Assembly (NCBI GenBank): GCA_963722255.1
Contig: CAVRJO010000001.1
Coordinates: 480,001-544,000 of the forward strand
Direction: 5' to 3'
DNA from: Candidatus Babeliales bacterium
GTDB taxonomy: Bacteria; Babelota; Babeliae; Babelales; JANWKD01
DNA length: 64,000 nucleotides
Position numbers and translations under genes: made by a program
The notes under the pieces: generated by a model
The model's database searches: none
What the model was told of the DNA's origin: nothing
The model's input: the letters and a program-made list of their open reading frames with translations, nothing else
Shown: one piece after another, positions 11,370 to 39,392 of the stretch
Layout of the letters: each line of letters starts with the position of its first letter
Position numbering within the stretch: the stretch's first letter is position 1

Positions 11370-11417
11370 GGATATTTGTGGATATAATTGGGTATAATTG
11401 GATATAAATATGGGTAT
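11370..11417 (+). repeat. 10-bp periodic repeat block, copy 2 (putative fic promoter/operator)
   Basis: GGATATTTGT GGATATAATT GGGTATAATT GGATATAAAT ATGGGTAT, ending 6 bp before ATG 11424; contains TATAAT. Confidence 0.8.
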
Positions 11418-11423
11418 CAAACA

Positions 11424-12473
11424 ATGTTAAAAATCTCAGAAATCACTATTACATCAGAAATTTTAAATCTCATTGCTGAAATTGATCAATTTAAAGGAGC
11501 GTGGCAACTATTTGGCCAATTAACTCCTGAAAGGCTCAATGCATTACGTCATGTTGCAACCATAGAAAGCATAGGATCATCAACGCGCATTGAGGGGGCT
11601 AAGCTTTCTGATGATGAGATCGAAAAGCTCTTATCGGGCATAAAAACCAATTCTTTTCGTTCACGCGATGAACAAGAGGTTGCGGGATATGCTTTTGTAT
11701 GCCATGAGATATTCACCAGTTATGCATCAATACCTTTCACTGAAAATAGCATTAAACAGCTTCATCGTTGGTTATTACAATTTTCTGAAAAAGATGAACG
11801 GCACAGAGGTGAGTATAAAAAATTCCCAAATAATGTTGAAGCCTTTGATGCATCTGGCAAAAGTTTAGGTGTTGTTTTTGAAACAGCGAGCCCCTTTGAA
11901 ACGCCACTCGATATGCAAGAACTTATTGCGTGGACACGTGAACATTTAGAAACAAAATCATTACATCCCTTACTCACAATAGGTATGTTCACTGTTCTCT
12001 TTTTGGCCATTCACCCCTTTCAAGATGGAAATGGAAGACTTTCACGCATACTTACCACACTACTTCTTCTTCAAGCCGGCTATTTATACGTACCCTATAG
12101 TTCGCTTGAAAGTATTATTGAACATCATAAAGAGAAATATTATATTGCCTTACAACGCACCCAACGGTCACTAAAAAAAGAACATCCGGATTATCATTCA
12201 TGGCTTATCTTTTTTTTACGTTCTCTCAAAGAACAAAAAAATCATCTTGAACAAAAAATTTCACGTGAAAAAATGATAGGCTTGCACATAACACCCCTTT
12301 CGGCACAAATTCTTTTATTACTTAATGAACATGGACGCCTTACCATCAGCGAGCTGGTTGAGATGACTGCTGCCAATAGAAATACATTAAAAAAACATCT
12401 GATTCAAATGGTACAAAGCCTCCATATCGCCAAGCATGGAAAAGGCAGAGGCACCTGGTACACACTTGCATAA
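11424..12473 (+). CDS. Fic family protein with C-terminal winged HTH
   Basis: HPFQDGNGRLSR catalytic motif, SSTRIEG inhibitory motif, C-terminal ...GKGRGTWY wing. ATG 11424 preferred over TTG 11388. Confidence 0.9.
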   Translation: MLKISEITITSEILNLIAEIDQFKGAWQLFGQLTPERLNALRHVATIESIGSSTRIEGAKLSDDEIEKLLSGIKTNSFRSRDEQEVAGYAFVCHEIFTSYASIPFTENSIKQLHRWLLQFSEKDERHRGEYKKFPNNVEAFDASGKSLGVVFETASPFETPLDMQELIAWTREHLETKSLHPLLTIGMFTVLFLAIHPFQDGNGRLSRILTTLLLLQAGYLYVPYSSLESIIEHHKEKYYIALQRTQRSLKKEHPDYHSWLIFFLRSLKEQKNHLEQKISREKMIGLHITPLSAQILLLLNEHGRLTISELVEMTAANRNTLKKHLIQMVQSLHIAKHGKGRGTWYTLA

Positions 12474-17867: not shown

Positions 17868-19826
17868 TTATATGTGATGAGCCATCAAATTTTGCAATGT
17901 CCAAAGCTGCACAGAACCATTAAATGACGTTGTTTGATTTCTTACCATAAGTTCATTAATTGCTGAGATATTTAAATAGTCAGCCCACTTATTATTGACA
18001 GAATTAAGTGAATCTAAAAAATGAGTTTTAAAATAGGTTCCCTGTTTAAACCAGTGTGTCGTTGGCGACACAAAGCCCATCTTTTTTCTATAAATAATAT
18101 CGTTAGGAATAATTCCCTCTGCAGCTTTCTTTAAAATATATTTGGTGACACCATTACGATATTTTAATGCTGTAGGAATTTGAAACGCAAATTCAACCAG
18201 TGCATCATCTAAAAAGGGAACTCTTGCTTCAACTGATGTTGCCATGGTTATTTTATCAACGCGTGTTAATAAAAGTTCCGGAAGTCTATGCTTTAACTCT
18301 AAGTACATCATTGAACTAAAAAAATCAGCATTCGGCAAACGATTGTATAATTCAGCAAGATGATACTCAACGAATGCATAACTGTCATCGCTTTGTTTAA
18401 AATAAGGAAAAATTGCTTTAATAACCGGATCAACTGGTTCTTGAAAATCAAAAGATCTAACAACTTCTTTTTTCCATAGTTCAGAAAATGCTACTGCCCC
18501 ACTCCAGAAAAAATTCTTATTCTCTGCCCAGTTTTTTATAGCATCGAGTCTATTTAATTTTTTTTGTAAAAATGGTTTTGCAAGAGAATAAATACCTTGT
18601 TTTGCTAATGCTGGAAGATATTTTTGTGAATGTTTCCAATAACGATTATAAACATCTAAATAAACACCATATAAAGAATACCCACAAAAAAGCTCGTCAG
18701 AACCTTCCCCAATCAAGGCCACCGTTGTTCCGGAATCTTTCAAAAGTTTAGCAATATAATAGAGGGGAATACTAACGGTATCCGCCAATGGTTCATCTTG
18801 GTGATAAATCATTTTTTCAAAAAATTCAAAAGCTTCCTTTTCAGAAATTAGAAGCTCATGATGTTCGGTTGAAAATCTTTTGGCCACTGAGCGAGCCCAT
18901 TCAAATTCACTCAACTCTTGATCATCTGAAAAAGCGATGGTAAAGGTTTTGACTGTGCCAACAAGTTCGCTCATTAAAGCAACATTAAGACTTGAATCTA
19001 TGCCCCCAGAAAGAAACGCTCCATACGGAACATCCGACATCAAATGCTTTTTAACTGATTTACGTAAAAGAGATCTCAGCAATTGAATACAATATTCTTC
19101 GTTGCGCATATGAGCTGAGTCATAATGTTGTTTTGGAGTTAAAGGATTATACCATTCTTTATAGGTGATATTTTTTTGTGCATCAACTTTAAGGTAGTGA
19201 CCTGCAGGCATCTTATAAATGTTTTTATATAAGGTCATAGGCGCAGGAGTAGCTAAATAGGTCAAATAATGTGACATAGCCTGTACATTAAGTTCTTTAC
19301 TGATCCATGGTAACTGCCATAGTGCTTTTATTTCAGAAGCAAAACTTAACACATCTCCCAATAATGAAAAATAGATTGGTTTAATGCCATAGCGATCACG
19401 AATCAAAAAAAACTCTTTGGTAATAAAATCATAGAGCACAATAACAAACATGCCTTCAAGTCGTTCAAGAGCTTGAATTCCCCATTGTTTGTATGCATGC
19501 ATAATTGTTTCTGTATCGGAATTTGTTGTATAGCAAGCACCTAAACTTTCAAGTTCACTGCGTAATTGAGGATGATTATAAATCTCTCCATTACAAAGTA
19601 CCGCAACAGTTTTTCCAGCATCAAAAAAAGGCTGGAATGCAGCATCTGAAAGATCCACTATGCTCAGCCGACGATGAAAAAGTGCTAACTGCTCTTCATC
19701 AGACATCCATATTCTATATCCATTTGGCCCTCTATGGGCAACAGATTGTTGCATTTTTTCAAGAAGATCATGATTCGGCCAATAGGATTTTTGAGAAATG
19801 TTGATATAGCCACCAAGCCCACACAT
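17868..19826 (-). CDS. asnB: Asparagine synthase-like glutamine amidotransferase, paralog A
   Basis: MCG Ntn start, HRGP, RRLSI, NGEIYN, FLSGGIDSS, GEGSDELF, EARVPFLD. Confidence 0.9.
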   Translation of the reverse strand: MCGLGGYINISQKSYWPNHDLLEKMQQSVAHRGPNGYRIWMSDEEQLALFHRRLSIVDLSDAAFQPFFDAGKTVAVLCNGEIYNHPQLRSELESLGACYTTNSDTETIMHAYKQWGIQALERLEGMFVIVLYDFITKEFFLIRDRYGIKPIYFSLLGDVLSFASEIKALWQLPWISKELNVQAMSHYLTYLATPAPMTLYKNIYKMPAGHYLKVDAQKNITYKEWYNPLTPKQHYDSAHMRNEEYCIQLLRSLLRKSVKKHLMSDVPYGAFLSGGIDSSLNVALMSELVGTVKTFTIAFSDDQELSEFEWARSVAKRFSTEHHELLISEKEAFEFFEKMIYHQDEPLADTVSIPLYYIAKLLKDSGTTVALIGEGSDELFCGYSLYGVYLDVYNRYWKHSQKYLPALAKQGIYSLAKPFLQKKLNRLDAIKNWAENKNFFWSGAVAFSELWKKEVVRSFDFQEPVDPVIKAIFPYFKQSDDSYAFVEYHLAELYNRLPNADFFSSMMYLELKHRLPELLLTRVDKITMATSVEARVPFLDDALVEFAFQIPTALKYRNGVTKYILKKAAEGIIPNDIIYRKKMGFVSPTTHWFKQGTYFKTHFLDSLNSVNNKWADYLNISAINELMVRNQTTSFNGSVQLWTLQNLMAHHI

Positions 19827-19876
19827 ACAGTCCCCTTTTTTTTGCATTAAACATCACTAACACTGTGCGCTCTATT

Positions 19877-22419: not shown

Positions 22420-23538
22420 ATGAAGAAACTACTACTATTATTTTTATTTTCGGGATCATGTTTTTTGACACTTGCTTCAACTGGACAAAAAAAAGCACTC
22501 ATCTTTGGCATCACAGGCCAAGATGGCGCTTACCTTGCTGAATTTCTTCTCAAGAAAAACTACATAGTCCATGGTGTAAAAAGGCGTTCATCTTCATTTA
22601 ATACAGCACGTATTGATCACCTTTATCATGATTTACACGAGCCAAATTGTTGTACCTTTGTTTTACATTATGGCGATGTAACCGATAGCACCAATGTTGT
22701 ACGGATTATTCAAGAAGTTCAACCTGATGAAATTTATAATTTGGCAGCACAAAGCCATGTACTTGTTTCATTTGAAACACCTGAATATACTGCCAATTCC
22801 GATGCTCTTGGTACTCTTCGCATCTTGGAAGCAATTAGAATTTTGAAATTAGAAAATAAAACACGCTTTTATCAAGCATCAACAAGCGAACTTTTTGGAA
22901 ATTCACCTCCTCCGCAAAGTGAGCTTACTCCTTTCTGGCCACGCTCGCCCTATGGTGTTGCAAAATTATACGCTTACTGGATTACGGTCAATTATCGTGA
23001 AGCATATGGTATTTTTGCCTGCAATGGAATTCTTTTTAATCATGAATCTCCTCAACGCGGTGAAACATTTGTAACGCGAAAAATTACACGAGCAGTTGCT
23101 CATATCAAAAATGGATTACAGGATACGCTCTATCTAGGAAACTTAGATTCATTGCGGGATTGGGGATACGCTAAAGATTATGTTGAGGCTATGTGGCTTA
23201 TGCTGCAACAAGAAAAACCTGATGATTTTGTTATTGCAACCGGACAAGCACATTCAGTAAGAGAATTTGTTGAACGCGCATTTGCACATGTTGGCATTAC
23301 TATAGAATGGCAAGGAAGCGGCATCAATGAATACGGTATTGATGCCGCAACTAAAAAACGGCTCGTTGCTATAGATCCAAAATATTTCCGGCCCACTGAA
23401 GTTGATTATTTACTGGGTAATACAACAAAAGCCACGCAACTTTTGCAATGGAAGCCGCGAGTCTCTTTTGATGAATTAGTTGCTCTTATGGTTGACCATG
23501 ATTGTGCTTTGGTTACACAGAAAAATGCTCCTCATTAA
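22420..23538 (+). CDS. gmd: GDP-mannose 4,6-dehydratase with N-terminal signal-peptide-like extension
   Basis: [47 protein letters not shown]. Confidence 0.95.
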
Positions 23539-25736
23539 TCACGACTTCGGCGTTTAAATCGTGGCAATTTTTTTAATTCTTTAACTGTTTTTTCTACTTG
23601 TGAGGACATCCATTGTTTATTATGCTTTTCTACTAATGTTTTGAATTCTTGGGGCAAATCTTCATACCCAAATTGCAAAAGATCATCTATCACTACCAAT
23701 TTATTATTCTTTATTACATTCAAAATATACGTTACTATAAGTGCTTGATCTAATAGGACATATGACTGATTAAGAAATGAAAAAATAATAACTGGCGATA
23801 TGTCAAAAAATAACAATTTCTCTACAATACCTGTTGTGCCCATTTCACTCAATTGATACATAATATTATTTCCTATTATCCCTTTAAAATCTAATCTATC
23901 TTTTTTGAAATCACTACTTTCAAAAACAGTAAGCGTTCCACCCGTTTCACTACTACAAAATGCAATCGTAAGAGGATTAACCCCTTCAAAAATAATAGAA
24001 ATTATTACATTCGATATAAAACTTACTCTTACTATTGGATTATCAAATATTCTGGTCCACAACTTCTTCTTTGAATCCATATCAATACATAAAAATTCTC
24101 CATTATTTCTTAATAAAAGCTTATAGGAATCTGGGGAAAAATAAGCAGTTTCGTAAATCTTCGATGTTGCCCATATAATTTTACCATCAGTAACATCAAG
24201 TACAAAAACACCATTTTCTGTTAACAAAGTTATTAATCTATTATCCGGTGAAAAAACAGTAGTATAAGGCAAATTTTTTAAAGGGTTTAGCAATTTCCAT
24301 GAAAAAATATCTTCATCATCAACACTATTTTCTACCTTGATAAGTTCTTTGGAAACTGTAATTATTTTTTTTCCATCAGGTAAAATTCTAGTTAGATCCG
24401 ACTCAGAATTTTGTTTAGTTTTAATTTCCTGTCCCGTCATCATATCAATAGTTCTTACAAAATTTTCATCGTTAGAAAAACACAAATATTTTTTTTCCTC
24501 ATCAAAGTATAATTCACCGATCCTACTATTATTCAAATTCAATCGAAATACAATTTCGCCCGTTTTACTATCGATAAACAACATTGAATTACCATTATCA
24601 TCAAAACTTTCAACAATAATCCTTTTAATGGGTGAAAAAAAACCAAGAACTTTAAAACGTGGCAACTTATTTTTTTGCCATACTTGAATACCAGTTTGCG
24701 CATCAACAAGCTGCATATTATAATAGTTGTTAAAAATTAAAAGCTGTAAACTATCTGAAGAAAAATAAAAATTATTAGAAAAAGAATATGATGCAAGTTC
24801 CCAAATTTTTTTATTTGTTATTAGGTCTACCATAATTATCTTTGAATCAGAGTCAATAAGTGCTGCTAATTTAGTTTTATCGGGAGAAATATTCATGTGA
24901 TATGCACTATATTCTCTCTCAAGAATACGTTTTATCTCTGATTGAGGAAGAGTTTTAAAAATCAATGCTGCGTCATCACATACACGTTGAGATAAAGGTA
25001 GTTGCATCTCTTCGGGCAATCTTTGCATGAGGCTTACATACTCCCCAAGCTTTTCTGCAGAATCAATGCTCTTTAAATGTTTCACCAGAAGATTTTGATA
25101 TTTTTTTAATAACTTTTTACTATCAAGATAGTTTGCTGCATTAATCAAATCAACCAACATTTCATCTGATAAAGAGTCAGAATCATATGCTCTATTTGTT
25201 AAATCTTTATACACATAATCAAATACCTCTTCTGATAAATTCGGTAACGGAATTGGCAGAGTATAATCTTCAACATCTGCAAGGATATTTTTTAAGGTAT
25301 TCGATTTTTTTGCTTGCGCAATTGATAAAACATACTCTTTATTACCTACCTCAATAGTAATATTTGTTAATCGATCGGTGATAACCTCAGAATATTTATC
25401 AATCAATTGTTGAATCTTTAAAATTGAAGCCCCAGCAAGAAGCTGATTCATCATTGTATCATCAAGATCATTTTCATCATAGTTCTGATTTGTTAAATCT
25501 TTATGGATATACTCAAAAATTTCACTTGTAATACCATCAGGCAAAACAATTGCTTCCTCAGGATCAATACGCTTTTTCAGCAGTCTTTCTAACGTTTCAG
25601 ATTGTGATGCTTGCTCTCGAGTCAAAGAATAGACTTGGCCACCAACATTAATTTTTACATCCTCTTTTTGTTCCATTGCATACAAAAAAGAAATAGATAA
25701 AAAACAAGCACCAATCATAATTCTTTTACTATTCAT
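23535..25736 (-). CDS. Secreted effector: two Skp1/POZ-like domains plus beta-propeller, paralog 1
   Basis: GAGGA SD before ATG 25736; signal ending [37 protein letters not shown]; repeated FSPD/FSSD blades. Confidence 0.75.
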
Positions 25737-25878
25737 CACAGATCCTCGCATCAATTTTAATACTATTATTTCTATTATAATAAGAAATCTGATAAAGGTT
25801 TTACAATAAATACTAAAGCTATACAGAAGAATGCTCTTTATTAATCGCGACTGCGGCGTTTAAATCGTGGCATTTTTT

Positions 25879-28080
25879 TTAATTCTTTAACCGTTTTTTC
25901 TGTTTGTGACGCTTCCATTGCTTATTATGCTTTTCTACTAATGTTTTAAATTCTTGTGGTAAATCATCATATCCAAATTGCATAAGATCATCTATCACTA
26001 CCAATGTATTATTCTTTATTGCATTCAAAATATATGTGACTATAAGTGCTTGATTTAGTGAATTTTCTTTATGATCAAAAAACGAAAAGATGGCTAATGG
26101 AGAAATATCAAAACAAATCAATCTCATACTTCCACGATCTCTACTTGTGAGAGAGAAATATACAAAATTATTCTTTATACTCTGAACTCTAACGTTTAGT
26201 AAATACCCCTGAAGACTTTGGATTTCAGATGTTATAATACGTTGGCCTGATTGTATTTTGTAAAATTCAATTGCATATTCGTTCTCGGGTAAAAAAACCA
26301 CATAAGCCACTACATCTTCGGCTACAAAAAATAAATCTCCGATCAGCTGTCCTTTAAACGATTTCGTCCACAATTTTCTTTTTTTAACTAAATCCAAAGC
26401 AGTAACTGAATCAGGAAAAGAAATTGACTGTAGTAACAATTCATTCGAACTAGGCGAAAAAAAAGTTAAAAAATGTTTAGTATCTTCATCAAAAATATTT
26501 GATTTTTCATACTGGATTTTTCCCGTGAGCATATTGAAAACAAAAATAAAATTTTGTGCTGTAGAACCAAGCACAAATAAACTATTATCTTTTGAAAATG
26601 ATGTTATACTAGGAATCTCTATTAATGGTTTTTTAAATGCCCAAGTAAAAGGGTCATTACCATTAGTACTGTTTTCCAACGTGAATAATTCTTTTGAAAC
26701 TTTGATTATTTTTTTCCCATCAGGAGAAATATATAATTTTTCATTTGAAAAATCACTTTTTGCATTCTTAATTTCTTGACCGGTGTCAATATTAATAGCC
26801 GAAACATATATAGTGCTCCAATCTTGATACTCTATGATCAAAGATTTTGAATCCGATTCATAATAAGAATTAATAATCCTGAAAGCAGCATGAGGCAAAT
26901 CAAACAAAATATCGCCAGTCAGACTATCAAGTATCTGTATTTTTTTACTTTCAAGAACTTGTATAACAATTCTATTAGGTCCCGAAAAAAACCTTGGGAT
27001 ATTATTTGGTAATATGGAATAATTCTTTTTCCACAATTGTTTTCCCGTGTAAGTATCAAAGAGTGTTAATTCGCCTTCCTTGTAGCTTAAAAGCCTCGAA
27101 CTGTCTGATGAAAAAACTATTTTGCTCTTATTTAACGCTTTGCTTTGCCATAATTTTTTATTTTTTACTAGGTCAAATACAGTTGAAACATCAGAAGTGT
27201 TAATTACCACACAAATGCTTGTATCCGGAGAAATAATAATTTGTTCACCTGATTGCTCGCGATCTTTTACCAGCTCAATATGCGATTGCTGCATAGTTTG
27301 GTAGAGCTCTTTACTTAGGGTGCATATATTTTGAGACAGCGGAATTTGCATCTCTTCAGGCAATCTTTGTATGAGGTTTTCATATTCCTCAAGTTTCTTT
27401 GCAGTATCAATGCTTGTTAAACGAATTACCAGAAGATCTTGATATTTTTTTAATAACTTTTCACTATCAAGATAGTTTGCTGCATTCACTAAATCAACGA
27501 GTGTTTCATCAGATAAAGAATCAGAATCATAAGCACTATTTGTTAAATCTTTATAGACATAATCAAATACCTCTTCTGACAAATTCGGTAATGGAATTGG
27601 CAAACTATAGTCTTCTACATCTGCAAGAATATTTTTCAAGGTGTTCGATTTTTTTGCTTGCGCAATTGATAAAACATACTCTTTATTACCTACTTCAATA
27701 GTAATATCAGTTATTCGATCGGTAGTGATTTCAGTATATTTTTCTATCAAACTTGGAATTTTAAGAGTGATCGCTGCATTAAATAATGCGGCAAGCATTT
27801 TATCATCAAGATCATTTTCATCATAGTTCTGATTTGTTAAATCTTTGTAAATATAGTCAAAAACTTTACTTGTAATACCCTCAGGCAAAACAATTACTTC
27901 CTCAGGATCAGTATGTTTTTTCAGCATTCTTTCTAACGTTTCAGATTGTGATGCTTGCTCTCGAGTCAAAGAATAGACTTGGCCACCAACATTAATTTTT
28001 ACATCCTTTTTTTGTTCCATTGCATACAAAAAAGAAATAGATAAAAAACAAGCACCAATCATAATTCTTTTACTATTCAT
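25879..28080 (-). CDS. Secreted effector: two Skp1/POZ-like domains plus beta-propeller, paralog 2 (frameshifted tail)
   Basis: Same architecture; near-identical N-terminal part and upstream DNA. Confidence 0.75.
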   Translation of the reverse strand: MNSKRIMIGACFLSISFLYAMEQKKDVKINVGGQVYSLTREQASQSETLERMLKKHTDPEEVIVLPEGITSKVFDYIYKDLTNQNYDENDLDDKMLAALFNAAITLKIPSLIEKYTEITTDRITDITIEVGNKEYVLSIAQAKKSNTLKNILADVEDYSLPIPLPNLSEEVFDYVYKDLTNSAYDSDSLSDETLVDLVNAANYLDSEKLLKKYQDLLVIRLTSIDTAKKLEEYENLIQRLPEEMQIPLSQNICTLSKELYQTMQQSHIELVKDREQSGEQIIISPDTSICVVINTSDVSTVFDLVKNKKLWQSKALNKSKIVFSSDSSRLLSYKEGELTLFDTYTGKQLWKKNYSILPNNIPRFFSGPNRIVIQVLESKKIQILDSLTGDILFDLPHAAFRIINSYYESDSKSLIIEYQDWSTIYVSAINIDTGQEIKNAKSDFSNEKLYISPDGKKIIKVSKELFTLENSTNGNDPFTWAFKKPLIEIPSITSFSKDNSLFVLGSTAQNFIFVFNMLTGKIQYEKSNIFDEDTKHFLTFFSPSSNELLLQSISFPDSVTALDLVKKRKLWTKSFKGQLIGDLFFVAEDVVAYVVFLPENEYAIEFYKIQSGQRIITSEIQSLQGYLLNVRVQSIKNNFVYFSLTSRDRGSMRLICFDISPLAIFSFFDHKENSLNQALIVTYILNAIKNNTLVVIDDLMQFGYDDLPQEFKTLVEKHNKQWKRHKQKKRLKN

Positions 28081-28173
28081 CACAGATCCTCGCATCAATT
28101 ATAATACTATTATTTCTATTATAATAAGAAATCTGATAAAGGTTTTGCAATGAATAAAAAGATCAGATTTATA

Positions 28174-30129
28174 TTACATTTCAACGGCTAGCAAATTTTG
28201 AAGCACCCATAATTGTACTGAAAAATCTGAATTAGGATTTTGATTTCTTTCAAAAAGCTTATCTATTTCTTGAATATCAAAATAATCGGACCATGCTGTT
28301 TTTGAATGAACAGTATCTAAAAAATGTTGCTTAAAATAGCTTCCTTGCTTGAACCATCTACTTGTTGGTGCAGCAAATCCCATCTTTTTTCGATAGATAG
28401 TATCATAAGGCAAGATGCCCTCCGCTGCTTTTTTTAAAATATATTTTGTGACACCATTTTTATATTTCAAAGAAGTTGGAATTTGGAATGCAAATTCAAC
28501 AAGTTTATGATCTAAAAAAGGTACACGAGCTTCAACTGATGTGGCCATGGTCATCTTATCAACGCGCATAAGAAGCAGCTCAGGAAGCCGTTGTTTGAGC
28601 TCTATATATGCCATCGAAGTAAAAAAATCAGCATCAGGATTTAAACGATTAAGCTCCTGCATATGATAATCAACAACAGTATAACTTGAATCAATTTGCT
28701 TAAATTCAGGATAAATTTTATTAATAATCGGATCAACTGCAAAATCAAATTCATTGTGCTTAAGAAGCGTCCGCTTCCATAATTCAGAAAATGCTGTAGC
28801 ACCTCCCCAGAAGATACTCTTGCCATCAGCCCAATTTTTCAAAGTATCTAATCGATTAAATCGTTCAGGAAATAACGTTGAAGCGGCATAATACATACCC
28901 TGCTTTGCAAAAGTTGGAATAAAGCGTTGAGAATTTTTCCAATAATGATTATACGCATCTATATAGGCACCATAGGTTGCATAGCCGCAAAAAAGTTCAT
29001 CAGAACCTTCACCAACTTGCACAACAGTAACTCCTGAATCTTTTAAAAGCTTTGAAACATAATAAAGAGGAATACAAACGCAATCTGCAAGAGGTTCATC
29101 TTGGTGATATACCATCTTTTGGAAAAATTCGAATGCTTCTTTTTCTGCAATAATAATTTCATGATGATCGGTATTAAATCGTCTGGCAATTTTACGTGCC
29201 CAAGCGAGTTCACTGTATTCTTGCCCGTCAGCAAACGACACATTAAATGTTTTCACTTGGCCAACAACTTCAGACATTAATGCTACATTCAAACTAGAAT
29301 CAATGCCGCCCGATAGAAAAACACCGTAGGGAACATCTGACATCATCTGTTGTTCAATTGAATTACGCAACATGGCGCGAATCTTTTTTATACAAAATGA
29401 CTCATCGGCCATCTGCTTTGCATCATAAACTATTTCAGGTCTTAAAAATGTGTACCAATTATGAAACGTAATATTTTTTTTTGCATCTACCTTAAGATAG
29501 TATGCTGCAGGTAATTTATAGATATTTTTATAGAGCGTCATAGGCGCCGGAGTCGCTAGATAAGTTAAGTAATGGTACATTCCTTGCGTATTTACCTCTT
29601 TGAAATTCCAAGGCAATTGCCATAATGCTTTGATTTCAGATGCAAAGCTCACTACATCATTTTGTAACGAAAAATATAATGGTTTAATGCCAATGCGATC
29701 TCGAATTAAAAAAAGTTCATGAGTCAGAAAATCATATAAAACTATTGCAAACATGCCTTCTAAGCGATTGATTGCATCAATTCCCCATTGCTTATACGCA
29801 TACACAATCGTTTCTGTGTCAGAATTTGAATAATAGATATAGCCAAAACCTTCTAACTCTTTACGCAGCTGTGGATGATTATATATTTCACCATTGCACA
29901 TGACAGCAACAGTTCTCTGGCTATCAAACATTGGCTGAAATCCTGCATCAGAAAGATCCATAATGCTCAGACGACGATGAAAAAGCGCTAATTGATCTTC
30001 ATGAGATAGCCATATTCTATAGCCATTAGGACCACGATGTTCTAAACTTTTTTGCATCTTTTCAAGTAACTGTTGATCACAAGAAAAAGAAGGTTGCTTT
30101 AGATTGAAATATCCACCGAGCCCACACAT
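28174..30129 (-). CDS. asnB: Asparagine synthase-like glutamine amidotransferase, paralog B
   Basis: MCG start and the same motifs as paralog A. Confidence 0.9.
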   Translation of the reverse strand: MCGLGGYFNLKQPSFSCDQQLLEKMQKSLEHRGPNGYRIWLSHEDQLALFHRRLSIMDLSDAGFQPMFDSQRTVAVMCNGEIYNHPQLRKELEGFGYIYYSNSDTETIVYAYKQWGIDAINRLEGMFAIVLYDFLTHELFLIRDRIGIKPLYFSLQNDVVSFASEIKALWQLPWNFKEVNTQGMYHYLTYLATPAPMTLYKNIYKLPAAYYLKVDAKKNITFHNWYTFLRPEIVYDAKQMADESFCIKKIRAMLRNSIEQQMMSDVPYGVFLSGGIDSSLNVALMSEVVGQVKTFNVSFADGQEYSELAWARKIARRFNTDHHEIIIAEKEAFEFFQKMVYHQDEPLADCVCIPLYYVSKLLKDSGVTVVQVGEGSDELFCGYATYGAYIDAYNHYWKNSQRFIPTFAKQGMYYAASTLFPERFNRLDTLKNWADGKSIFWGGATAFSELWKRTLLKHNEFDFAVDPIINKIYPEFKQIDSSYTVVDYHMQELNRLNPDADFFTSMAYIELKQRLPELLLMRVDKMTMATSVEARVPFLDHKLVEFAFQIPTSLKYKNGVTKYILKKAAEGILPYDTIYRKKMGFAAPTSRWFKQGSYFKQHFLDTVHSKTAWSDYFDIQEIDKLFERNQNPNSDFSVQLWVLQNLLAVEM

Positions 30130-30226
30130 ACTCATCCTTTTGAAAATATATTGTTATTGGTGCTACGTACTAGCAATTTTCTTGGTTATACCATGAAATA
30201 CACAAAAGGTGAAATGGATGTCTGTG

Positions 30227-37853: not shown

Positions 37854-39392
37854 CTAATTTTTTTTCATGTATTTTTCAAAAAGTGCTAGAATTTGAGAAT
37901 CATTTCCAGCATATTCTAAAGGCGTCATCCTGTTTTCATCATGATCAATATATTCCATACGAGGATCCGCATTTTTCTCTAACAAAAATTCAATGAGGTC
38001 TAATTTTTTGTCTGAAACATCAATTGCCCATACCAGAAGAGGTATCTTAAATTGCGCGCTCACTATAGTCGCGTTAGCATCCATACCCCTTTCAACCAAT
38101 TTTTTAATTAATTCTTTATAAAATTTATATTTCTTATCAAAATCTACCGCGCCAATTCTGTAACTGCCTTTTGTTACATCTAAATGAGAATTTTCAGCTA
38201 ATATTTTTAATGCTTCTTCCGGATGCTTAAATACTCCCTCACTGAATCCTTTAAATTTTTGACTTAACTTATTTGCTTCTTTCAATGGTTCTTTAAAAAC
38301 TGGCAATATCCTTAACCTAAATGAACTATCATAAGGATTTCTAAAAGTTCTTATTTCTTTATCAATTTCCCCGATCAACTCATAGCTAACTTTTTTATTC
38401 AATCTCTTTATAATCTCTGCAGCCAAAAAATCATCGCCTGAACATAGGCGATACATAAACTTATTTATTCGAGCAAGATGAGAGATATCGAGCAAAGTTT
38501 GTATGTAATATTTTTTTTCAGAAACACGCGTTGGTATTAAAAAACCCATGATTTCATAAAGTAGTTCATTAGGAAGATCAGAAATACCTAAAATTTTCTC
38601 TTCTTCCTGCTCAACTGAGGAACTATTATTGTCAACTAAAAAAGAGTTCGGTACAAAATAATGCTGCAATGCTTCAATTACTGAACCAAGAGGCTTAAAT
38701 CCTCGCGTTTCTTTTTTTTTAAGTCCACGTTTTTTAAGTTCACGACCTGCTGAAGCATGTTGTATGCATTTTTGAAAAGCAGGTAATATTCTAATTCGAA
38801 ACGATGGATCATAAAAATTTCTACAGGATTTTACAATGTTCTCCATACTGTTAAAAGACAGAATGCTACTCCCAGCCATTTTTTTAAAAAGATCCAATAG
38901 GAAATCTTCATTAGAAGAATAATTATCTTTCATCGTCTTACAAGATTGTGTAAAACTCGTAATATCCTGCAATACCTGTATAAATCGCTTTTCGCTTCCA
39001 ATAAATTCTGGTATCATCCTAAAGACTATTTTCATTACCATTTCATAAGGAAGCACTAAAAAATAGTTACTAATTTGGCTCGTATCTTGTTGGCACCGTT
39101 TATACAAAGAATTTCGAACTATAATCTGCTTATTTGATTCTTCGGGGACCAAGTTATCAAATTTTTTAGCAACGCTTTTTCCCAAAGCAGTTAAAATGGA
39201 GAGTGTGTTGTTATCTACAACAACCAACAATCTCTGATCATCCTTTTTTTCTGATTGTTTATCCACCCCAGGAAAGGTATTGCCTTCTTGCATTGCCCTT
39301 AAAGTCCCAGATACAAAAAGTAGAGAAATAAACAGGCTACAAACTTTTGCTAAAAAATGGCATTTTATGTAATTCATTAAAAGTATCCACAT
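37854..39392 (-). CDS. Secreted effector with two F-box-like modules and C-terminal ankyrin repeats
   Basis: Signal ending RA-MQ; FLVLPYEMVMKI and ISDLPNELLYEIMGFL; LLEKNADP...TPLEYA. Confidence 0.75.
   Translation of the reverse strand: MWILLMNYIKCHFLAKVCSLFISLLFVSGTLRAMQEGNTFPGVDKQSEKKDDQRLLVVVDNNTLSILTALGKSVAKKFDNLVPEESNKQIIVRNSLYKRCQQDTSQISNYFLVLPYEMVMKIVFRMIPEFIGSEKRFIQVLQDITSFTQSCKTMKDNYSSNEDFLLDLFKKMAGSSILSFNSMENIVKSCRNFYDPSFRIRILPAFQKCIQHASAGRELKKRGLKKKETRGFKPLGSVIEALQHYFVPNSFLVDNNSSSVEQEEEKILGISDLPNELLYEIMGFLIPTRVSEKKYYIQTLLDISHLARINKFMYRLCSGDDFLAAEIIKRLNKKVSYELIGEIDKEIRTFRNPYDSSFRLRILPVFKEPLKEANKLSQKFKGFSEGVFKHPEEALKILAENSHLDVTKGSYRIGAVDFDKKYKFYKELIKKLVERGMDANATIVSAQFKIPLLVWAIDVSDKKLDLIEFLLEKNADPRMEYIDHDENRMTPLEYAGNDSQILALFEKYMKKN

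Follow-up and report, generated by a model that had tools for sequence, protein, structure and literature searches.

Can a bacterium supply, in one exported polypeptide, both the adaptor and the substrate receptor of a eukaryotic cullin-RING ubiquitin ligase? This question is raised by two tandem genes, A (25879..28098) and B (23535..25754), on the (-) strand of a 64,000-nucleotide stretch of DNA from a Candidatus Babeliales bacterium (contig CAVRJO010000001.1, positions 480,001 to 544,000; hereafter the window). Each gene has an open frame of 739 residues, and the two are paralogues with 53% identity (397/753 columns) and the same architecture throughout: a signal-peptide-like N-terminus, two Skp1-like units, a beta-propeller, and a set of C-terminal helices. 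The original prediction, made from the sequence, described them as single-chain adaptors of the SCF (Skp1-Cul1-F-box) type with an F-box-like helix in front of the propeller. We propose a related reading, in which that helix is understood differently: A and B would be exported to act on the host, each serving as a one-chain substrate receptor of a host cullin-RING ubiquitin ligase. We assign this reading a probability of roughly 0.5.

The reading depends first on the identity of the second Skp1-like unit (unit 2; core residues 130–228, at 27415..27711 (-) in A and 25071..25367 (-) in B). By sequence comparison, unit 2 is a genuine Skp1 homologue. The Pfam family Skp1_POZ (PF03931) matched residues 140–178 with 29.3 bits in A and 25.5 bits in B (cut-off 21.9). 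Among 11 N-terminal parts from the family, 7 likewise exceeded the cut-off, the best with 56 bits. When the single sequence of A was searched against the PDB, the sole match was SKP1a (E 0.0039). We also built a profile, A2, from unit 2 and the following linker of 11 family members. At E ≤ 1 this profile matched 56 distinct PDB sequences, comprising 33 Skp1 sequences (E 2.9e-18 to 2.3e-12), 22 Elongin C sequences (best 4.5e-4), and one BTB zinc-finger protein (E 0.42). In a genome search the same profile recovered unit 2 of A and B at E 1e-51 and 6.2e-53, respectively, and unit 1 more weakly, at 1.6e-11 and 6.5e-10. The strong Skp1 likeness claimed for the second unit is therefore borne out both by the profile (2.9e-18) and by the single sequence, which found nothing but SKP1a.

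Structure models agree with the presence of two such units in tandem. The full-length AlphaFold2 model of A, computed from a 12-sequence family alignment, has a mean predicted local distance difference test score (pLDDT) of 86.5 and a predicted template modelling score (pTM) of 0.73. Because a Foldseek search with this model was dominated by propellers and uninformative for the N-terminus, residues 22–275 were folded separately from 48 sequences (pLDDT 91.4, pTM 0.81). In VIA comparisons the closest structure to unit 2 was 1ldk_D, the Skp1 chain of the Cul1-Rbx1-Skp1-Skp2 structure (Z 12.4, root-mean-square deviation (rmsd) 2.9, 109 aligned), and unit 1 (residues 31–129 of A; 27712..28008 (-)) scored Z 12.3 against yeast Skp1 and 12.1 against the BTB domain of KBTBD2. 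Pfam BTB (PF00651) covered residues 32–126, mainly unit 1, with 22.6 bits in A and 20.6 bits in B (cut-off 20.5). Both units thus fold as BTB domains, and the BTB and Skp1_POZ families are both above their Pfam cut-offs, as expected from the two tandem POZ-like units of the original prediction.

The two units differ in the motifs through which Skp1 contacts a cullin. Unit 2 contains PIPLPN (the PxPN motif) and AANYLD, and in their places unit 1 has VIVLPEG and AAITLKI; unit 1 is a degenerate copy, probably with a structural role. The Asn-Tyr pair of ANYLD is central to the Skp1-Cul1 interface. PxPN, located in strand B3, is described as a distinctive Skp1 motif involved in Cul1 interactions (Stogios 2005, PMC1257465). 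Ten aligned family sequences all have P169, and at least 90% of them have P171, Y209, and D211. We counted the motifs with our own regular expressions in the 150 top-ranking representatives from the family search, where PxPN occurs in 38/57 long forms with a signal peptide versus 44/58 short canonical forms, and an ANYL-like motif in 48/57 versus 51/58. Loss of the cullin-contacting surface had been named in advance as one of the findings that would speak against a cullin adaptor; in unit 2 both PxPN and ANYLD are retained.

A single-chain adaptor of this kind might dock not on Cul1 but on Cul3, in the manner of BTB proteins, or on Cul2/5, in the manner of Elongin C, a caveat that accompanied the original prediction. 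Pfam BTB is also above its cut-off, and the VIA Z scores of proteins containing a BTB domain and a 3-box (SPOP 11.1, KLHL22 11.2, KEAP1 10.1) are tied with that of ASK1 (11.2) over residues 130–275. The sequence, in contrast, favors Skp1 over Elongin C by 14 orders of magnitude (3e-18 versus 4.5e-4), PxPN is given as specific to Skp1 (PMC1257465), and neither BACK nor Kelch was listed for A or B at E ≤ 10. The caveat is weakened by sequence and untouched by fold, and we give docking on Cul3 or Cul2/5 little credence.

Skp1 uses its helices 7 and 8 (H7 and H8) to bind F-boxes (Stogios 2005, PMC1257465), and the segment that follows unit 2 is where an F-box-like helix and Skp1's own C-terminal helices must be told apart. 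In A, two helices follow the unit 2 core (residues 233–243 and 248–267; 27289..27414 (-)), as delineated by AlphaFold2, MAFFT, and VIA; the second opens with the motif RLPEEMQ (residues 246–252). The motif had been taken for an F-box signature, together with LPQEF near the C-terminus (residues 713–717). Both motifs are present, as claimed; their identification as F-boxes is not supported. F-box hidden Markov models (HMMs; PF00646 and PF12937) matched neither A nor B (E ≤ 10), nor any of 11 family N-terminal parts (E ≤ 5) or 11 tails (E ≤ 10), a negative to be read with the proviso that HMMER filters discard many weak matches. An F-box comprises some 45 residues in three helices; both models show just one helix for the LPEE segment, 248–267, running into the propeller. 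The C-terminal module does have three short helices, without an F-box sequence match. The LPEE helix and the C-terminal tails were accordingly rejected as F-box candidates.

The alignment instead places the segment on Skp1 itself. Aligned by MAFFT against 37 short, mostly canonical Skp1-like representatives, RLPEEMQ falls on "NDFTPEEE" at the start of Skp1 H8, and the helix before it falls on "KGKTPEEIRK.FNI" (H7). VIA superposes residues 4–160 of Arabidopsis ASK1 on residues 130–275 (Z 11.2, rmsd 5.4, 125 aligned). By our regular expressions on the 150 representatives, LPxE comes after the last ANYL-like motif in 37/57 long forms with a signal peptide (median spacing 28 residues) and in only 2/58 short forms lacking a signal peptide, while the FTPEE tail motif shows the opposite distribution (0/57 long, 26/58 short). 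In a control window, 5/59 proteins contain LPxE. The motif is real and conserved, and is best read, from these alignments, as the family's version of the start of Skp1 H8.

Could the LPxE helix nonetheless be what is left of an F-box fused to Skp1, so that one chain would contain Skp1, F-box, and WD40 parts in canonical order? P247 and E249 are kept in at least 90% of ten sequences, LPxE is in excess in long forms over the control window (37/57 versus 5/59), and Fbw7 could be aligned to the full model over 499 columns. An F-box origin also retains some probability because the counterpart of this helix in some relatives resembles F-box helix 1 in sequence (LPNELLVLIQQAYL, LPKEIRNPIIF). The lack of any F-box HMM match, the presence of one helix rather than three, the alignment of this helix with Skp1's own FTPEE/H8, the mutual exclusion of LPxE and FTPEE, and the superposition of ASK1 as far as residue 275 all argue the other way, and we consider an F-box origin of the LPEE helix quite unlikely.

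If the H7/H8 face is part of the Skp1-like module, what occupies it? The C-terminal helical module of A (residues 665–739; 25882..26106 (-)) contains helices at residues 667–675, 681–695, 704–711, and 715–738 in the AlphaFold2 model, the LPQEF helix being followed by a basic tail. We predicted the complex of residues 128–272 with residues 660–739 as two chains and obtained an ipSAE interface score of 0.74 (runs 0.73, 0.74, and 0.74), which expresses the model's own confidence for two pieces of one chain; the best of three controls scored 0.01. A score of 0.74 is reached by 116/157 solved complexes and 2/215 mismatched pairs, counts that apply only roughly because our own alignment was used. 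The runs agreed in 100% of contacts, with a partner pLDDT of at least 81. The predicted interface joins residues 227–270 (the end of H6 and the H7-like and H8-like helices) to residues 667–706, with helix 681–695 at its center; helices 667–675, 681–695, and 704–711 are predicted to lie on residues 227–270, and the LPQEF helix (715 onward) lies outside the named contacts. The tail outline is conserved in the family ("DIS", a helix, "L..EQ...I", and "Y..LP.E.K"), and the "L..EQ" helix motif, by our own regular expression, occurs in the last 110 residues of 17/48 long forms versus 2/48 in a control window. The prediction supports a model in which the F-box-binding face would be filled in cis by the C-terminal helices.

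Between these two modules lies the propeller (residues 271–664 of A; 26107..27288 (-)), defined by Pfam, AlphaFold2, and Foldseek. The model of A has 36 strands over residues 275–664, corresponding to about 8–9 blades, and Foldseek matched it to 8- and 9-bladed propellers at E about 1e-13, with solved propellers at 6.6e-14 and lower. The Pfam family PQQ_2 was detected in B with 31.5 bits, above its cut-off of 27.6, and in A with 25.6 bits, below it. The multi-blade propeller that had been recognized from the sequence is thereby substantiated, as is its fusion with an adaptor-type module in one chain that is putatively exported.

The case for export begins with the N-terminus of A, a signal-peptide-like stretch of 20 residues followed by MEQ (28021..28080 (-)), where residues 1–29 have a pLDDT below 50. 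The signal peptides of A and B were called by eye and with a crude script for a K/R-then-hydrophobic pattern, and the pattern of K/R, a hydrophobic stretch, and "x-M-E/D" is repeated through the family, with the Met of x-M-E/D near-invariant in the Skp1 fusions. Many other signal-peptide-like N-termini of this genome also end in "...A/G/C-M-E/D" (in the window, for example, 28021-28080 (-)). By the same sort of crude script, M[EDQKNHS] closes the hydrophobic stretch in 132/499 such open reading frames (ORFs), versus 28/499 in a control window and 96/874 ORFs without such an N-terminus. The terminal Met motif might mark a site of cleavage or sorting peculiar to the lineage, or serve as an alternative start within the frame.

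The two paralogues have diverged very unevenly along their length. The signal peptides are 100% identical, in nucleotides as well, so that no ratio of nonsynonymous to synonymous substitution rates (dN/dS) applies. Amino acid identity is 75% in unit 1 (dN/dS 0.52), 90% in unit 2 (0.14), 55% in the H7/H8 helices (0.33), 36% in the propeller (0.48, with dS saturated at 1.3), and 76% in the C-terminal module (0.28). The paralogues have in common a conserved adaptor module and docking partner, and vary in the receptor, as in a receptor library. The pair (23535-28170 (-) in the window) is also a mosaic: dS is 0.3–0.4 for the Skp1-like units and 1.3 for the propeller, and the promoter region and signal peptide are identical. 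This pattern points to gene conversion at the 5′ end or to a swap of propellers.

This pattern bears on whether A and B might be cullin decoys, in which the Skp1-like unit would bind host Cul1 (or another partner of the same Skp1 face, such as Sgt1) and block SCF assembly, and the propeller would serve localization rather than substrate delivery. The motif and fold evidence applies equally to a decoy, the predicted self-occupation of the F-box face would exclude host F-box proteins, and a single surface of the Skp1 BTB domain is reported to be common to Cul1 and Sgt1 (PMC5282575). A decoy, however, would have no use for a large propeller that diversifies to 36% identity between paralogues, nor for the many different C-terminal modules found across the family. 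We regard it as unlikely, and return to the single-chain substrate receptor.

How widespread are such proteins? The close family is small, with four database proteins matched, including A and B themselves; a third paralogue, on another contig of the same genome, shares 45% identity. A profile search of 1.84 billion representatives returned 3640 proteins at E ≤ 1e-3, of which 513 also satisfy E ≤ 1e-10. Among the best 150 representatives, 62 have at least 400 residues, mostly with a signal-peptide-like stretch that leads directly into the Skp1-like unit. We scanned 61 of these long representatives (excluding P0001, a fragment), of which 53 match Skp1_POZ and 36 a propeller family, WD40 propellers being present in most of the long members; others have C-terminal modules of a different kind, such as an RCC1-like repeat recognized by eye. 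Skp1_POZ is above cut-off in 45/261 Dependentiae genomes versus 0/14 control genomes, frequently in tandem arrays, and matches at E ≤ 0.001 in 33/189 high-quality Dependentiae genomes. With the closer alignment A5, all 7 of the 7 family loci in named genome records belong to Candidatus Babeliales bacterium. A quick tree of the Skp1 units falls into two halves, one holding 54/57 long signal-peptide forms and the other 56/58 short forms. This split has a support of 64, which is weak, so a single origin of the fused forms is neither shown nor excluded.

In the genome that carries A and B (1.62 Mb, 93% complete), seven genes match profile A2. The further Skp1-like fusion genes there, with frames of 435–580 residues, include an adjacent pair at 200–204 kb of contig C1 (C1:200699-204244; L017/L004), of which L004 has WD40-type propeller matches, as well as genes at C1:222874, C2:222773, and C2:173076.

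We then looked in the same genome for the proteins with which a Skp1 would work. No match to Cullin was above the cut-off of 33.2; a single 16.3-bit match at 12258-12413 (+) of the window, within the ORF 11388-12473, is probably due to chance, because two control genomes gave similar noise. There was no match to zf-rbx1 in the 93% complete genome. Since the genome gave no credible match to a cullin and none to Rbx1 or the Skp1 C-terminal domain, the partner of the Skp1-like face must come from the host, as the original prediction presumed. The genome does encode, on another contig, two adjacent F-box-like genes of about 300 residues (32.4 and 34.1 bits, above cut-off; C2:565227-566351 (+)), so that it carries both F-box and Skp1-type mimics. 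A weaker F-box-like match in the window (PF12937, 16.6 bits, below cut-off; 38427-38585 (-)) lies in an ORF of 512 residues (37854-39392) that matched no Pfam family at E ≤ 1e-5.

Taken as substrate receptors, A and B would act as follows. The proteins would be exported by the Sec pathway and would then enter the cytosol of the protist host. There, unit 2 would replace host Skp1 on the N-terminal domain of host Cul1. By prediction, the C-terminal helices fold back on the H7/H8 face, to which the F-box binds in SCF; they would thereby fill the groove in cis and fix the propeller rigidly to the adaptor. The propeller would then present bound host proteins to Rbx1-E2 for ubiquitination, and neither an F-box nor host Skp1 would be required. 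For the parasite Chromulinavorax, signal peptides are given for 44% of the genes, with secretion and vesicles suggested (PMC6561590).

Several observations weigh against this reading. As regards the adaptor, the VIA scores for Skp1 and for ordinary BTB domains (12.4 versus 12.1–11.1) count as tied, and fold alone cannot separate Skp1 from BTB because ordinary BTB domains lie within about one Z unit; the first Foldseek match of the 22–275 model is the tethered Miz1-BCL6 POZ pair, with Skp1 chains from rank 2 (about 1e-4); PxPN is missing from 19/57 long forms; and the Skp1 C-terminal domain PF01466 matched none of the 11 N-terminal parts (E ≤ 5) and nothing in the genome (E ≤ 1). Regarding this last point, two helices fill the H7/H8 positions; the element is thus present, having diverged beyond the PF01466 model. 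The propeller resembles periplasmic BamB/PQQ-type propellers as strongly as eukaryotic WD40 propellers. The docking score is self-assessed and the signal peptides were called by eye, as described above, and, as regards the step from the periplasm to the host, the genome gave no match to a VirB4-type ATPase, only two secretins.

The same observations can be arranged into a different explanation, in which the Skp1/BTB fold now serves, independently of cullins, as a scaffold, for example for oligomerization or partner binding in the envelope or periplasm, or in an effector with another target. Sec-type export would place the protein first in the periplasm, the PQQ_2/BamB-type propeller matches, the absence of PF01466, and the 19/57 long forms without PxPN would all be accommodated, and relatives of Skp1 are reported to have non-SCF roles in eukaryotes (10.1101/2023.05.13.540652). 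The strong constraint on Skp1-specific motifs (dN/dS 0.14) is harder to account for, as is the restriction of the family, within the set of genomes searched, to a single phylum of obligate eukaryote parasites (45/261 versus 0/14); its tandem expansions are also effector-like. A scaffold without a cullin is, in our judgment, doubtful, and we retain the host-directed substrate receptor.

The architecture can be compared with several known systems. Eukaryotic Skp1, the adaptor of SCF or cullin-RING ligase 1 (CRL1), is defined by PF03931 and PF01466, and shares with A and B a homologous BTB/POZ core, PxPN and ANYLD, and two helices at the H7/H8 places. Unlike it, A and B are fused to a receptor, begin with a signal-peptide-like N-terminus, carry a degenerate second unit in front, have no detectable PF01466 and LPxE instead of FTPEE, and have an F-box face predicted to be filled in cis. 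The BTB adaptors of Cul3 are described as a one-chain analogue of the two-chain Skp1/F-box pair (Stogios 2005, PMC1257465), and the BTB-BACK-Kelch proteins, other Cul3 adaptors (KLHL, SPOP), and poxvirus BTB-Kelch proteins likewise combine adaptor and receptor in one chain, with a BTB fold, helices, and a propeller. The module of A and B differs from these in being of Skp1 lineage, without a BACK or Kelch match, and in having a propeller that matches PQQ_2/WD40-type models. By descent the module is a Skp1, although it would work like a Cul3 BTB adaptor; among the sequence features that define each class, PF01466 is the one missing for Skp1, and every F-box feature looked for is missing.

Bacterial and viral precedents resemble A and B in other respects. 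Legionella AnkB, Agrobacterium VirF, and Ralstonia GALA/RipG hijack host SCF, as is proposed for A and B, and the genome described here has its two F-box-like genes; these F-box effectors supply the F-box and borrow host Skp1, whereas A and B supply the Skp1 part and have no detectable F-box. Giant viruses are, like Dependentiae, protist parasites outside the eukaryotes, and they too encode Skp1 or BTB plus WD proteins (mimivirus R739-type), and chlorovirus PBCV-1 A039L belongs with this group. Of ten viral Skp1 loci that we found, none has a fused receptor and nine have canonical Skp1 features; five of these nine frames span 164–182 residues and the others are longer or interrupted, while the tenth locus is a divergent frame of 288 residues. 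The viral contigs (L031-L040), some of 1.8–2.5 Mb and of pandoravirus size, encode stand-alone Skp1, with several frames interrupted as if by introns. The mimivirus BTB-WD proteins match by fold only (E 2.8e-3). The BTB-LRR (PEX1) and F-box families of the Parachlamydiaceae, bacteria with an obligate intracellular life in amoebae, are described as expanded and tandemly duplicated, with eukaryote-like ubiquitin-ligase adaptor domains combined with repeats (Domman et al. 2014, PMC4209131). As characterized there, those families have generic BTB or F-box domains and use type III secretion (PMC4209131); the present family has a Skp1-type module and putative Sec-type signal peptides, and occurs in Dependentiae. 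The paper on Babela reports WD40 proteins, a RING protein, and a single F-box protein, with no mention of a Skp1 fusion. In the freely available literature searched, we found no description of bacterial Skp1-receptor fusions.

We tentatively suggest, with somewhat less confidence than we place in the general reading, that Dependentiae have found a third way to hijack cullin-RING ligases, distinct from the supply of an F-box (Legionella, Agrobacterium, Ralstonia) and from that of a Cul3-type BTB (Parachlamydiaceae, poxviruses). They would export a large and diversifying library of Skp1-receptor fusions whose helices downstream of the receptor close off the F-box groove in cis. Each fusion would in effect be a Skp1/F-box/WD40 unit in circularly rearranged order, docking on host Cul1 independently of host Skp1. 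If docking on host Cul1 is true, the bacterium would rewire SCF-type ligases at the level of the adaptor, without an F-box, and the fusions would represent a natural minimal single-chain design for CRL1 receptors, relevant to targeted protein degradation. They would also make up an extensive family of effectors in Dependentiae, about whose manipulation of hosts hardly anything is known, and their propellers would point to host proteins that the parasites need destroyed. The family offers a natural experiment on which Skp1 surfaces serve cullin binding and which serve F-box binding.

The likely translation starts lie within the open frames. For gene A, the likely start is the ATG at 28080 (MNSKR..., 733 residues), seven codons into the frame and preceded by GAGGA; for gene B, it is the ATG at 25736, which also gives 733 residues. 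The database protein P0002 (733 residues) is the product of B beginning at that ATG, and P0001 is a fragment of 563 residues that is identical to A and begins at the equivalent ATG. About 70 bases upstream of A and B are almost identical, and include a promoter-like site upstream of A (28121..28150 (-), TTGCAA-18-TATTAT, 9/12 matches) and a near-identical one upstream of B (25777-25806 (-), 9/12 matches; TTGCAA/TTGTAA-18-TATTAT in the pair). These sites are weak evidence for a promoter, because the scan gave 16 sites against a mean of 29.4 in shuffles, fewer than expected from shuffled sequence.

The ends of the genes also differ. Gene A ends in KQWKRHKQKKRLKN, and past its stop another frame continues the counterpart of B's tail (25840-25900 (-) in the window), from which it follows that A is frameshifted relative to B and its basic tail shortened. 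Lys/Arg-rich tails end all three paralogues, the third having about 80 extra residues.

Genes A and B are located within a surface-polysaccharide cluster containing glycosyltransferases, two asparagine-synthase-like genes, a methyltransferase, and a GDP-mannose dehydratase; in the window annotation we saw no functional link between A or B and this cluster. The asparagine-synthase-like paralogues, of 659 and 653 residues, flank the region (17868-19847 (-) and 28174-30135 (-)). The GDP-mannose 4,6-dehydratase ORF (22420-23538 (+)) starts with a hydrophobic, signal-peptide-like extension of 20 residues, and its Pfam domain begins only at residue 27; such an extension would be odd for a cytoplasmic enzyme, or else the start may have been called too early.

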